Shown: in pieces, positions 24,773-30,700 of the stretch | How the letters are laid out: the number at the start of each line of letters is the position of its first letter | How positions within the stretch are numbered: position 1 is the first letter of the stretch | Assembly: GCF_051903065.1 (NCBI RefSeq) | Contig: NZ_CP178439.1 | Origin: Escherichia coli | GTDB lineage: Bacteria; Pseudomonadota; Gammaproteobacteria; Enterobacterales; Enterobacteriaceae | Length of the DNA stretch: 64,000 bases | Strand: one strand, 5' to 3' | Made by a program: the position numbers

Positions 24773-27700
24773 TAACGAAAGTATTTAGCGGGCATGAAAA
24801 TGGCAAATAACGGTCAAACATCGTGGCGTTGACAATGCTGGGCACGTTTCTTTTCCAGCCGGGGTTTAAGCCAGAGCTGAAACTCATTCAACTTCTCAGC
24901 AGCCAAAACCGCTTCAACGGGGAAAACTTTATATTTACCCTGTTGCTGAGGTTCACCCAGCCATCGCCTGATGGCTCCGTCAGTCCATAAACGAGTCTCT
25001 TTTAGCCTAGTTACAGTGACCCATTTTCTGGACCATTCATCAAATTGTCGCTGGCGATCCCGATAACGTTGTTCTTCCTGCTGCCGAAGCCACTCGCGAT
25101 CAACAGCAAATTTTCGGTATCCAACAAAGAGCCCTTGTACTTTGGCCATGTCATATTCCGGTTGCTTAGAGTTACTCATTCAACCAAAACCTAAACGTCG
25201 ATACAAACTCTGTTTCATAACCAGGGTTTTATCCTTACCGCGACAGTAAGTAACAGGGGCTGCATAAACCGGTCATTTAGTCCGTTATGCAAAAATTATT
25301 GAGGATCCGGGCTGTTAAACTGTTCTTCCTCTTTCGCTTCCGGTGAAAAGGGGAGGTGTCACCCTGCGAGCCCGTGTAGTGAAAGGGATTCGTCGTAATA
25401 CAGGCCAAAGGCTAACATGACCGCAAAGGACGCCCGGGCGACCGGATACCTGCCGGGTTGTGCGATGTAAAATCCGGAAGCAGTGATAACACAAACAGGC
25501 CCCTACAGCGTAAGGATTGTGATGGACGATAAAGAGCAGTTTACGAATCTTGTGGCAAAGCATGCCTCCGGACTCACCGAAGAGCAGCTGGCCGGGTACG
25601 ATGCCTGTTCCCTGGATGGTGAATGCGTCACGCCTTCATACGAGGTTTTCCGGGGGTATCGTACCCGCCACACACTGGATGAATTTCTGGAGATGGCCAT
25701 ATCGCTGAATGCCATCCACCCGGATGAATATTTAACGGATATGCTGCTGAAGCCTCATGAGGTGATCGGCGCTCTGGCCGATGAAGGCGACCAGCTGAAC
25801 AACGCCACCCCGGTTTATTTCTTTCCGGATACCGGCGTCTATGCAGCGGCCGTTAGTGAAACCCGGGTGCTCGATGCCTGGCTTTGCTGGCCATGCTACC
25901 CGGCGAACTGGTAACGCGGCCGTTGGAATTGCACCGGCCGGATACGAATTTAACCGACCCCGTGGCGGGAAGGCTATCAGAGTTGCATGTCCTCATCCCT
26001 CAAGCCCCCTGCCAGGCCCCAACGTGCTGTCAGGCTTCGCCTGATTCCCGATCTGCGCCGATACTTCAGCCGATAACTTTTTGTTTTCTTTTTATTTTCT
26101 TCCCATTTCCTCAAAAATCGCGGGCGGCGTGGACAGGGCACCATTGCCGCATGTGGGGTCTTAATAAGGGCAGGGTGGTCAGTTTTGCTCGATGCCAGGG
26201 GTAGGCCCTCCCCTTCATGGGATGAGGACATGCAAGTAAGCTAACTATCTGAAATGACGAAGGTTCATTTGGTGAATGTCGCTTCATATTAATGTTGTGT
26301 CACTTATGATCGTATGTAGCTGGTTGCAAAGAGGAGCGATGAGACAATAAAGTTGTATCGCTAACAAGATTTATGCTGCCACATAGTAACAGCCTAAAAG
26401 TTGTACGCCCTATTTAACAGCTTTTAGGCTGTTAATTTGATATTACAGCTTTTAGGGTGTATGTTTAGGAAACAGCCTGCAAGGTGTATCAGAGGAAACT
26501 ACTGAGGCCAGCTTATGATCAATAATGATTACCCGTTAAACACGCTCAACCAGCTGCGTCCCTTGCTCATTGGTTTTCGCAAGGCGAATGGCCTGACGCA
26601 AAAAGACCTGTCCGAAAGGTTAGGCGTCACTCAACAGACATACTCACGTCTGGAAGCCAACCCTGCCAGTGCGAGCATTGAACGGCTATTCAAGGTGTTT
26701 TCCATCCTGGGCGTAAAAATCAGCTTCTCCTCGGCAACCACCTCTTCAGAGAGGAAGCAGACGGAAGAAATGCTTAAATCAAACTCACCTGCACGACAGG
26801 AGGATTGGTAACGATATGAGCCGGAAACAGCAACGTCTGGTAATTTGGATGAACGGCATCAAAGTCGGGTACTGGGAAAAAAGCAAAGGGGTAGACAGCT
26901 TAGAATACCTTCCTGAATGGGTTGCTGACGAACAGGGAAGGCCGCTGTCATTGTCCCTTCCTTTTACTCCCGGGAACCAGGTCTGGCGTGGAAATGTGGT
27001 ACGTGACTATTTTGATAATTTACTGCCGGACAGCGAAGGCATACGCAGACGTCTGGCAATGCGTTACAAGGCCGATAGCCTGGAGCCTTTTGATCTGCTG
27101 ACGGAGCTGGGAAAAGACTGCGTGGGCGCGATACAGCTGCTTCATGACGGAGATGAACCCACTGATTTATATTCCGTGAAGTATCACCCGCTTACTGAAT
27201 CAGAAATTGCGGCAACTTTGCGTAATACCACGGAGACATTGCTACCGGGCAGGCCAGAAGATAACGACGACTTACGTTTATCTATTGCCGGTGCTCAGGA
27301 GAAAACAGCCCTACTGTGGCATGAAGATCGGTGGTGTATGCCGGAGGGTAATACACCAACGACGCATATATTCAAGCTACCGCTCGGACTTGTGGGGAAC
27401 ATGAAAGCCGACATGAGCTCGTCGGTTGAAAATGAATGGCTCTGCTCGGTACTTCTCGGCCAGTACGGGCTCCCCGTGGCAAGAACGCAGATTGCTCACT
27501 TTGAAGATCAGAAAGCGCTGGTGGTAGAACGTTTTGACCGAAAATGGTCAGGAGACGGACAATGGATCATTCGTTTACCCCAGGAGGATATGTGTCAGGC
27601 CCTGGGCGTTTCGCCATTACGAAAATATCAGGCGGACGGCGGGCCAGGTATATCGGAAATTATGGAGGTTCTGAGTAATTCAGACCGTGCTGAGCGTGAC

Positions 27701-30700
27701 AAAGCGCAGTTTTTTATGACGCAGATAATTTTCTGGATGATGGCCGCAACAGATGGCCACGCTAAAAATTTCAGTATTTCTATTGGGCCACAGGGACGTT
27801 ATCACCTTACACCAAACTATGATGTGTTGTCGGCATGGCCGGTGATCGGTCATGGGAACAATCAGATATCCTGGCAGAAGTGCAAACTGGCGATGGCCGT
27901 ACGTGGCAGTAGCAACTATTACCAGATATATCGAATACAACGACGCCACTGGATCAGGCATGGTGAGATAACCGGCCTGAGTAAACAGCAGACAGAGGCG
28001 ATGATAGAGGAAATCATCGCCAGAACCCCGGGTGTCATTGAACGTGTTAGCGGGCTTCTTCCGGACCAGTTCCCCCAGCAGCTTGCGGAAAGTATTTTTG
28101 ATGGAATGAGGCAGCAATGCAGGCGCCTGGCTGAGAAATGACAGCCGCAATTTATAGTGTGCATGTTTTCAGAATAGCTGATGTAAGCGTGAGGATTCAG
28201 TATGACTGAAGAACAAAAAAGAATAGAGCGGGCTATTGAGTTGGCTTGTCGTTACGGCGGAACCGATGAAATGCATCATCTGCAATGGGTCGTGGATCAG
28301 ATGGTAAGAGAACTTGCTGGAGAACGTTATGCACAGATTGTAGCTGATGCCACCAGCGGAGAAGATGGGCCTGATACTTACAAATGGAGTGTTGGGATCG
28401 CGCCTTAACAGCTGTCGGTCTGGGGGTGAAAACGTATTCTTCATTCAGCGAATTCCCAGGCTTCACATTAAGACTAAAGCGGCGGCCGCAGTAACGTAAG
28501 AGAAAATAAATGGCTATTTTAGCAATCATTGCAGTTATCGCCCTGGGTGGGTACGCCTACGGATTTATTAAAACCCGTGAGCTGAGCGCTTTGCGTAAAG
28601 AAATGAAACTATACGTGGATCGCATGGAAGCGGCGGAGCTGGACTTACACGCAATCAGAAGTGTAGCGGAGCACCGGTTGCACGGTGCAGGTAAACAGTT
28701 TGCCGACCTTTACAGCCGTATCGACGGTGCAACTGTGACGCTGACACCCGAAGATCAGCTGTTACTGGCAACGATGCCATTTAATATTCAGGATGTAGAA
28801 GACATCGTAAACGAGCGCGGTCCAAAGACAATTAGCGGCCGTCCATTCTGGGAAGTTGAGCCAGGCCCGCATGATTATGAATATGGCCCGCAATATCCGT
28901 ATTTCCCAGACCAGCGCTAGGAAGAGATCAAGATGAGAGAGCCAAGACCACGCCATACCTTGCAGGTCATTCGTGTACCTTCTCTGGAGGTTCAGGACCT
29001 GGGGCTGACCAGCTTTGATAGCTGGCTTGACGAGCACGGGTATGACAAAACGAATGCCAGAAATAACCGTACCATCTGGGCGAGAGAAGGCGGATGGCAT
29101 CTGAAACGTTGCAGAAATCTTGAAACTGGCACGGACGATTTCTGGTTTATCGCTTTCGATGGTAAAGGCGGGAAGATTTACCCGCTGAAAACCCAAAGAG
29201 ACTACCGGGCTGCATATCGTAAGCTGGAAGCAGAAGGTTATGCGCCTGCGGTCATCGAGCAAATGACCACAGGCGCAGCATATAACCTGGCCTATCCACG
29301 TTCCACCCTAAAACAAGCTGAGACGGCCACCAGCGAGCCAATTCGGAAACCTGACGTAGATATCCAGGGTGAGCACTGCGAGCGCGTAGTGACGCAACGT
29401 AGTGGCGTGGCACAGGGTAAATTCAAAGCTCTGCTCATCGAGAATTTCGCAGGCCGTTGTGCGGTAACCGGTTGGGTTAATGGAGGTGTCCTGGATGCGG
29501 CACACATTGAACATGGAACCCGGTACAATCCGTCTAATGGCATCCTGATGACTCCAACAATGCATGCGCTGTTTGATGCCGATCTTATGGGCATAGATCC
29601 GGCCACCCTGACCGTTCATTTTAAGCCAGGCATTGAGGTGGGCGAGCTGTTTGAAGGCCGTAAAATCACACCGCTGGTGTACGATCTGGACTTAGAGCGG
29701 CTGGCCGTACGCTGGGCAGAATACCAGGGCCTTGCTCAGGACCAATGAAGGGTGACAGCCAGGTTGTGCCTAAACCTGGCAGTAAAACCTGCATGCCACA
29801 AACCTTTAAATTCTGACTCAAGAGCCTGGCACAAGATAAAAGCGAAATGAAAAGGTTAAAACCGGTGCACCAGACCTCTTAGGTTTAATACCTGAGCCAG
29901 TATACTGGCAGTCTCAGGTAAGTGGGTATCATACACTTCAGAAATATCCACACCGAGATAACCGCAACAGTTAAAGAGCTAAAAAGGACGGTTTTAATTT
30001 TATGAATAAAACAGCTTTAATTATGATTCTGGGAATCCTCGGATGTGGTAAAGCATTTGCAGCCACTGAATTACAGCTCCAGCAAAAACGCGTTATGCAT
30101 TTCTGTGCCAATGCCAGCCTTCCGTTGTTGATTGCCGGTACAACTTATGCGAATACGTCTGACAATGGACGACCAGAAAAAGAAAGAGTGGCAATCCTGA
30201 AAAATTCAGTTGCAAGCTCGACAGCTTATAAAATGGCATCTCCCGGAGTTCAGATGGCCATGATGAGCGTGGTGGAAGATATTGCCGATCCGAAAGAATT
30301 AGCTCTACATCAAAAAGAAGTTAGACGTCTTGGGGCTAGTTATCTTTCCGACAGCGGTGTTTCATGGGCTTCAAAAACTGTTTCACCATTTACAGCCTGG
30401 TGTAACTTTAACCGTTTAGAAAGTTAAGGCTGGCAAGGCGGTTTCTGTTCAGGAAAGTTACTTTCCGTGCGGGGACCGTAAGATACAGATAAAGCTTAAG
30501 GCCTTTGAATTTTTGGAAAGCATTTGAAAATTTCATTGCGCTTGTCTGATATGAAACAGCCCCTGCATTTCTGCAAAGGCTGAAAGAGTGTGTACGGACT
30601 TTGGAAGGAGTGATGATATACGCCTGAGCCATCCCATCACCGCAGACAGGGTAATTAACCCTGACTAAAGCTTTCACCTATTCCGTCGCTCGCAAGCGGC

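Follow-up and report, generated by a model that had tools for sequence, protein, structure and literature searches.

The 64,000-nucleotide (nt) stretch of Escherichia coli plasmid DNA analysed here (contig NZ_CP178439.1; in the following, the window) very probably carries an autorepressed two-gene type II HipBA toxin-antitoxin operon, located on the backbone of an IncHI2 conjugative plasmid. We establish the two genes and their family, the catalytic residues of the kinase, and both the conservation and the promoter placement of an array of four operator sites. The module is the already known and widely annotated hipBA of IncHI2 plasmids, and it holds nothing new in principle about HipBA. What sequence comparison appears to add is small: an operator class, TACAGC-N6-GCTGTA, with its 27-28-base pair (bp) phasing, its placement on the promoter and its distribution over Enterobacterales and Burkholderiales. 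The locus consists of the following features, with the strand given where one applies; positions relative to the transcription start depend on a start inferred from the -10 hexamer.

26388-26405: operator O1, AACAGC-CTAAAA-GTTGTA; the site farthest upstream, at about -85 to -68 relative to the inferred transcription start
26416-26433: operator O2, AACAGC-TTTTAG-GCTGTT; perfect 6-N6-6 palindrome, ends 3 nt before the -35 hexamer
26437-26465, plus strand: sigma-70-like promoter, -35 TTGATA (26437-26442), 17-nt spacer, -10 TATGTT (26460-26465)
26444-26461: operator O3, TACAGC-TTTTAG-GGTGTA; takes up the promoter spacer and reaches into the -10 hexamer, sharing its first two bases
26471-26488: operator O4, AACAGC-CTGCAA-GGTGTA; about -2 to +16 at the inferred transcription start
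26504-26507, plus strand: GAGG resembling a Shine-Dalgarno sequence, 7 nt ahead of the hipB ATG, read from the sequence
26515-26811, plus strand: hipB-like antitoxin/repressor gene, 98 amino acids (aa), ATG start; Xre helix-turn-helix (HTH) at about residues 18-70, low-complexity tail, Trp98 at the C-terminus
26816-28141, plus strand: hipA-like Ser/Thr kinase toxin gene, 441 aa

The kinase and its antitoxin partner

An XRE-family HTH gene followed 4 bp later by a 441-aa HipA-family kinase had been proposed in the initial annotation, and this layout was borne out by the open reading frames (ORFs) at 26515-26811 and 26816-28141 together with their domain matches. Both ORFs lie on the same strand, and the hipB stop codon is separated from the hipA ATG by four nucleotides (CGAT). 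On an identical plasmid sequence, RefSeq places the start of hipB one codon past the ATG, at an ATC (26518-26811, 97 aa). The ATG at 26515 has the GAGG 7 nt upstream, and the 98-aa form of HipB is also present in public databases.

The HipA protein matched the N-terminal domain Couple_hipA (PF13657; 3.7e-21, residues 9-108) and the kinase domain HipA_C (PF07804; 3.6e-51, residues 155-405), with each match exceeding the gathering score, and reached 93.5 bits with NCBIfam TIGR03071 (cut-off 27.8). The solved structures of E. coli HipA match residues 7-431 at E=1e-100, and the protein is 41% identical to HipA of E. coli K-12. In the alignment, Ser156, Lys187, Asp313 and Asp336 pair with Ser150, Lys181, Asp309 and Asp332 of E. 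coli, and the motifs RLSIAGAQEKT and ATDGHAKNF are present. In E. coli HipA, Ser150 is autophosphorylated, Asp309 is catalytic and Asp332 binds Mg (PMC10627512, PMC7180214); Lys187 occupies the ATP-binding Lys position (Lys181 in E. coli HipA). At the hipA7 positions Gly22 and Asp291, which are named in PMC7180214, the aligned residues Gly25 and Asp295 are wild type. The domain and residue hallmarks of a long HipA were found, namely fused N-terminal and kinase domains as well as the catalytic, Mg, ATP and autophosphorylation residues. Since a 41%-identical structure has been solved and exact database matches exist, the family assignment is settled.

The HTH protein matched HTH_3 at 4.5e-15; its best PDB matches are E. 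coli HipB chains, its best NCBIfam match is HipB, and it is 32% identical to K-12 HipB over 57 aligned residues. The C-terminus reads ...SPARQEDW, and the terminal Trp is invariant in 11 aligned homologues including that of E. coli, where HipB's final 16 residues constitute an unstructured Lon degron and Trp88 occupies a HipA pocket (PMC3376134, PMC10627512). Judged from composition only, the HipB tail is predicted to be disordered. Both an Xre-type antitoxin directly upstream of hipA and a C-terminal tail with Trp, as expected of this family, are present.

The segment 26300-28200 is 100% identical to many IncHI2 plasmids, such as pSTM6-275 (IncHI2A, conjugative, MOBH). It was found in 1164 PLSDB plasmids from Escherichia, Salmonella, Enterobacter, Klebsiella and Citrobacter, mostly conjugative IncHI2 plasmids, and at least 80% of it is covered in 1156 of these. 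Among 5426 complete E. coli genomes, 284 carry the segment, almost always on a plasmid. The exact proteins each occur on at least 1000 contigs; some sources list them as HipB and HipA, and the names given in RefSeq are "helix-turn-helix transcriptional regulator" for the first gene and "type II toxin-antitoxin system HipA family toxin" for the second.

The operator array and its conservation

Upstream of hipB, a repeat finder revealed four 18-bp imperfect palindromes with the consensus TACAGC-N6-GCTGTA, which start at 26388, 26416, 26444 and 26471 and thus follow each other at 28/28/27 bp with gaps of 10/10/9 bp. The initial annotation had seen a 13-bp sequence with its exact reverse complement, accompanied by ACAGC half-sites. 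The two 13-mers are there (26388-26400, AACAGCCTAAAAG; 26421-26433, CTTTTAGGCTGTT), as is ACAGC at 26389, 26417, 26445 and 26472; the true unit, however, is not the inverted pair but the four-site array, in which these 13-mers are O1 and O2 taken in opposite orientation. A candidate fifth site at 26349-26357 (AAAGTTGTA) consists of a half-site only, lies out of phase (48 bp) and falls outside the segment shared with a second IncHI2 lineage, and was treated as chance.

In the window, the pattern ACAGCN6GNTGT occurs only at the four operator places, giving five matches as O2 is counted on both strands, while in 100 shuffled sequences the matches averaged 0.61 and never exceeded 4, short of the five observed. 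The array is hence not a product of chance. When one mismatch was allowed in ACAGCN6GCTGT, eight matches were obtained compared with 1.8 expected in the window, and the four additional ones are scattered singletons.

The same four operator sites are present in a second IncHI2 lineage, represented by Enterobacter kobei pC16_001 (97.9% identity). Between the two lineages, 8 of 149 upstream positions differ and none of the 48 half-site bases does, for which we calculated a chance probability of about 0.04. The similarity to this second lineage (pC16_001 and about 500 other plasmids, at 95-99%) starts at 26366, 22 bp before O1, so that the operator array marks the left edge of a shared cassette; to the left of 26366 the two IncHI2 lineages differ in DNA and in neighbouring genes. 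The Citrobacter portucalensis IncHI2 plasmid NZ_CP136602.1 has five operators, 155 to 27 nt upstream of hipB. Because its extra 28-bp unit (TACAGC TTTTAG GCTGTT) is in phase, the array seems to evolve by duplication of whole units.

Loci chosen by protein or DNA similarity, with no use of the motif, showed in-phase arrays of the same motif: sites lie at -128, -101, -73 and -46 from hipB in Pantoea plasmids (73% DNA identity), at -123, -95, -68 and -40 in Cronobacter pCTU1, and at -98, -71, -44 and -17 in the Ralstonia solanacearum megaplasmid (40% HipB identity). Conversely, 100,044 genomes were scanned with the motif only, as two sites 27-28 bp apart and with no protein information, which yielded 63 loci versus about 17 by a rough chance estimate. 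A HipB-family ORF lies within 700 bp at 26 of the 63, and in nearly all of these it is followed by a HipA homologue (47-79% identity). Hosts from the motif scan include Citrobacter, Enterobacter, Brenneria, Rahnella, Hafnia, Serratia, Cedecea, Erwinia and Lelliottia, and further Burkholderia, Duganella, Achromobacter, Roseateles and a metagenome-assembled genome (MAG) of Kangiellaceae. At two further loci, from Klebsiella indica and Mangrovibacter, there are three or four sites, with the sequence ending at the edge of the locus.

Pooling 115 sites from 31 loci gave the consensus (T/A)ACAGC-YTWTAR-G(C/G)TGTA and spacings of 27 bp (57 times) and 28 bp (23 times). Four sites are the mode (19 of 31 loci), typically at -128, -101, -74 and -47 from the hipB ATG. 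When the upstream regions of eight taxa were aligned, the invariant columns coincided with the ACAGC and TGT(A) half-sites, and variation was seen in the spacers and in the DNA between sites. A TAnnnT hexamer that starts with the last TA of the third operator is seen here and in the seven other taxa of the alignment.

The HipBs that are accompanied by TACAGC-N6-GCTGTA sites share the conserved recognition helix TQQTY(A/S)RLEANP, and the corresponding E. coli HipB sequence is KQATISNFENNP. This difference in the helix fits a changed DNA specificity. Taken together, the overlap with the promoter, the half-sites invariant in eight taxa and the in-phase recurrence at 31 loci agree with the earlier proposal that the repeats are operators of the HTH protein, and they support the prediction that the four sites over the -35, spacer, -10 and start region are autoregulatory operators.

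Several loci depart from this arrangement. Orphan hipB homologues (56-67% identity, C-terminal Trp kept) with one or two TACAGC-N6-GCTGTA sites and no hipA annotated downstream were found on pTHNK130-2, in K. michiganensis (IncHI1B/IncP), on an E. coli IncHI1A plasmid beside a Tn7-like tnsD, in E. coli IncF and in Raoultella; these calls come from PLSDB tables, which omit pseudogenes, so that hipA remnants could remain. In two cases an insertion sequence or an AAA ATPase gene follows the orphan hipB. Decaying hipBA loci with intact four-site arrays beside a tyrosine recombinase gene were seen in Pantoea ananatis NZ_CP054911.1, where transposase genes interrupt hipA, and in pOC5aB, where the similarity stops within hipB. 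A Massilia litorea plasmid carries three copies of a variant motif, TACATC-N6-GATGTA, spaced at 27-30 bp and located 83 to 9 nt before a 130-aa HipB-like gene with the recognition helix TTQQAYARIEADP and no adjacent annotated hipA; helix and operator may have changed together at this locus.

Full-consensus site pairs 27 bp apart also occur in several genomes with no HipB-family ORF within 700 bp. The pairs in Salmonella enterica subsp. arizonae (2452-2496) and Atlantibacter (10729-10773) are located some 200 bp beyond the 3' end of a gene for an approximately 380-aa protein that has no Pfam match, and near-identical pairs are found at hipB-less loci of Citrobacter (at about 5370) and S. enterica subsp. 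diarizonae (at about 208). At one Enterobacter MAG locus, such a pair is located just upstream of an Ead/Ea22-like gene, and another Enterobacter MAG locus has the same pair.

Proposed function and alternative explanations

What we infer about the function comprises binding to DNA, repression with HipA as partner, a labile HipB, toxicity, the target of the kinase and stabilisation of the plasmid. By analogy with E. coli, HipB dimers, probably flanked by HipA as a co-repressor, would bind O1-O4; the operators reach from a point just upstream of the -35 hexamer as far as the transcription start, so that the promoter would be silenced by a fully occupied array. HipA would be kept inactive within this HipB-HipA repressor complex, while free HipB would be degraded, its flexible Trp-ending tail acting like the Lon degron of E. 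coli HipB. If synthesis stopped, for instance in a plasmid-free daughter cell, HipB would decay and HipA would be released; the freed kinase would phosphorylate an aminoacyl-tRNA synthetase, leading to a translation stop and growth arrest, by which plasmid loss would be penalised.

Several points weigh against this reading. HipA substrates vary by homologue, and those of the Caulobacter HipAs are GltX, TrpS and LysS (PMC7029023); since substrates differ in this way, the target here is a guess, with GltX as the most likely candidate given the similarity to E. coli HipA. HipB scores 41.5 bits with NCBIfam NF007271, the equivalog model of E. coli HipB with a cut-off of 79, so it is a member of the HipB family and not an orthologue of K-12 HipB, from which it is set apart by this score and by operators other than TATCC-N8-GGATA. 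One comparison of hipA within IncHI2 gave 10 non-synonymous and 10 synonymous codon changes, pointing to only moderate purifying selection on the gene in these plasmids. Where a locus was found by the motif, the search pattern itself dictates two of its four sites; the remaining sites, their phase and the homology-found loci nevertheless provide independent sequence evidence for the array. Finally, literature searches on the hipBA of IncHI2 plasmids and R478 returned annotation-level mentions and no experiment on the module.

It is possible, though unlikely, that the genes form a real HipBA pair whose main role is antibiotic tolerance (persistence) or abortive infection of phages, with a negligible part in stabilisation. 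The chromosomal hipBA of E. coli is known for persistence rather than stabilisation, and toxin-antitoxin modules are generally linked to phage defence (PMC8262856). Homologues with 72-79% HipA identity in Citrobacter, Enterobacter, Brenneria and Rahnella lie on contigs of up to hundreds of kb that are likely chromosomal, where plasmid addiction would not apply. HipA also matches the PADLOC candidate PDC-M03A (4.1e-05), but this match is weak and the candidate uncharacterised; HipB gave only generic HTH matches, and the PADLOC matches were not counted as support for a defence role. On the other hand, the module is retained in essentially all IncHI2 plasmids, as indicated by the 1156 of 1164 plasmid matches that cover at least 80% of the segment. 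There are, moreover, precedents for stabilisation by hipAB, of a Paracoccus plasmid (PMC6312765) and, as the title of the paper suggests, of a Shewanella genomic island (PMC8978831). Roles in persistence or phage defence and in plasmid maintenance can also coexist.

It is highly improbable that the repeats serve something other than HipB binding, be it a terminator or RNA hairpins, iterons for replication, or recognition by some unrelated plasmid protein. O2 and the T-rich run that follows it were flagged as terminator-like, and O2 folds at -9.9 kcal/mol (z=-4.1), but folding is weak for O1, O3 and O4 (-4.1 to -4.3 kcal/mol, z -0.3 to -2.0), and it is the half-sites rather than stem complementarity that are conserved, with variable spacers; the hairpin and terminator reading was rejected on these grounds. 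Plasmid iterons are excluded because arrays precede hipB on large, likely chromosomal contigs in many genera. Some loci that lack a nearby hipB have pairs of this motif, so that another protein of like specificity may exist. The reading of the repeats as something other than HipB operators is countered by the fixed positions of the arrays, which in two orders of Proteobacteria lie about -128/-101/-74/-47 from the hipB ATG both on plasmids and on large, likely chromosomal contigs, and by a recognition helix that is conserved in the motif-bearing HipBs and different in E. coli HipB with its other motif.

Scarcely more plausible is an inactive or domesticated kinase, with the pair reduced to transcriptional regulation in the manner of HipBST HipB: other plasmids do carry orphan hipB homologues with operators and no annotated hipA, and in Pantoea plasmids hipA or hipB is disrupted by transposases, but the HipA ORF here runs to its full 441 aa and retains the autophosphorylation Ser along with every catalytic and ATP-binding residue, the exact protein is found on at least 1000 contigs, and HipB retains the C-terminal Trp that is absent from HipBST HipB (PMC10627512).

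Beyond the autorepressed HipBA operon, we considered the rather remote idea that HipBs with the TQQTY helix form a distinct operator-specificity class, that the phased arrays give rise to a continuous HipA2HipB2 nucleoprotein, and that the plasmid HipB acts in trans on, or is titrated by, other mobile elements. The evenly phased 27-28-bp arrays would let neighbouring HipA2HipB2 units touch, unlike the 10/21/10 arrangement of E. coli, and since motif pairs are found at island-like and prophage-like loci devoid of hipBA as well as beside orphan hipB genes, action in trans or titration would be possible.

In the literature, hipA and hipB are listed among the stability genes of the IncHI2 backbone (PMC4855149, PMC6617520, PMC6306219), and their differential expression is reported in one paper (PMC13183382). 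A search for a TACAGC-N6-GCTGTA operator returned primer-sequence noise only and no description of such a site. IncHI2 plasmids are major carriers of mcr-1, mcr-9, oqxAB, extended-spectrum beta-lactamase and heavy-metal resistance genes, and papers invoke hipAB to explain their stability, a claim for which an experimental test was not found in the literature. With the operator consensus, the promoter layout and the catalytic residues now defined, the stabilisation claim is easy to test.

Surroundings of the locus and comparison with known systems

Downstream of hipA lie a 68-aa ORF (28202-28408) and a 136-aa ORF (28510-28920), both with no Pfam match, followed by a 271-aa HNH_2 endonuclease-like ORF (28933-29748). 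The annotations of the three IncHI2 plasmids compared all give the 68-aa ORF as the same protein, and no tie of the ORFs in 28202-29748 to hipBA was found outside IncHI2. On the other side, an IstB_IS21 ATPase ORF (23975-24775, 2.5e-90) is unannotated at the corresponding place in pSTM6-275. An Rfam scan of the whole window gave no match at the hipBA locus and only two elsewhere, RNA-OUT, the antisense RNA of IS10 (42966-43035, 98.8 bits), and the class 1 integron attI / AAC_AAD leader (62959-63034, 74.3 bits).

The system most similar to the one described here is HipBA of E. coli K-12 (b1508/b1507; PDB 3DNV, 2WIU, 4YG7), in which hipB likewise precedes hipA in tight coupling, although the junction is a 1-nt overlap compared with the 4-nt gap here. 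The HipA proteins are 440 and 441 aa long and 41% identical with the key residues aligned, and both HipBs have an Xre HTH and a flexible tail whose last residue is Trp, HipB here being 10 aa longer. Both systems have four 18-bp palindromes, of which one sits within the promoter spacer and another shortly past the -10 hexamer (PMC4150777). The initial annotation had noted that the repeats differ from the E. coli HipB operator consensus, and this is the case: the E. coli operator is TATCC-N8-GGATA (PMC3920265), which we read in the K-12 sequence at -134, -106, -67 and -39 from the hipB ATG, in contrast to TACAGC-N6-GCTGTA here. In line with this, the recognition helix is TQQTYSRLE here and KQATISNFE in E. 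coli HipB. The gaps between sites are even here (10/10/9 bp) and uneven in E. coli (10/21/10; PMC4150777), with a 28-bp neighbour spacing common to both. Residues contacting the bases and the HipA-HipA contact between neighbouring operators are covered by reviews on E. coli HipBA (PMC3920265, PMC7180214). Furthermore, hipBA is plasmid-borne here and chromosomal in K-12.

HipAB of Shewanella oneidensis (SO0706/SO0705; PDB 4PU3-4PU8) shares with the present system four palindromic operators with a 6-bp central spacer, as well as genes separated by a few bases with no overlap (PMC4150777). However, the half-sites of its operator, GTGTA-N6-TACAC, are oppositely arranged, the gaps measure 34 bp and one site lies inside hipB (PMC4150777). 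The proteins are also more distant, with E=2.8e-21 for HipA, as opposed to 1e-100 for E. coli, and E=0.055 for HipB.

HipBST of E. coli O127:H6 and Legionella and YjjJ/HipH have a kinase core of the same superfamily as HipA here. With the YjjJ model, HipA reaches 25 bits compared with a cut-off of 401. The HTH protein HipB of HipBST regulates its promoter (PMC10627512), as is predicted for HipB here. In contrast to the split HipS of HipBST, which matches only residues 9-108, the N-terminal domain is fused to the kinase in the present HipA, and HipB ends in the C-terminal Trp that its HipBST counterpart lacks (PMC10627512).

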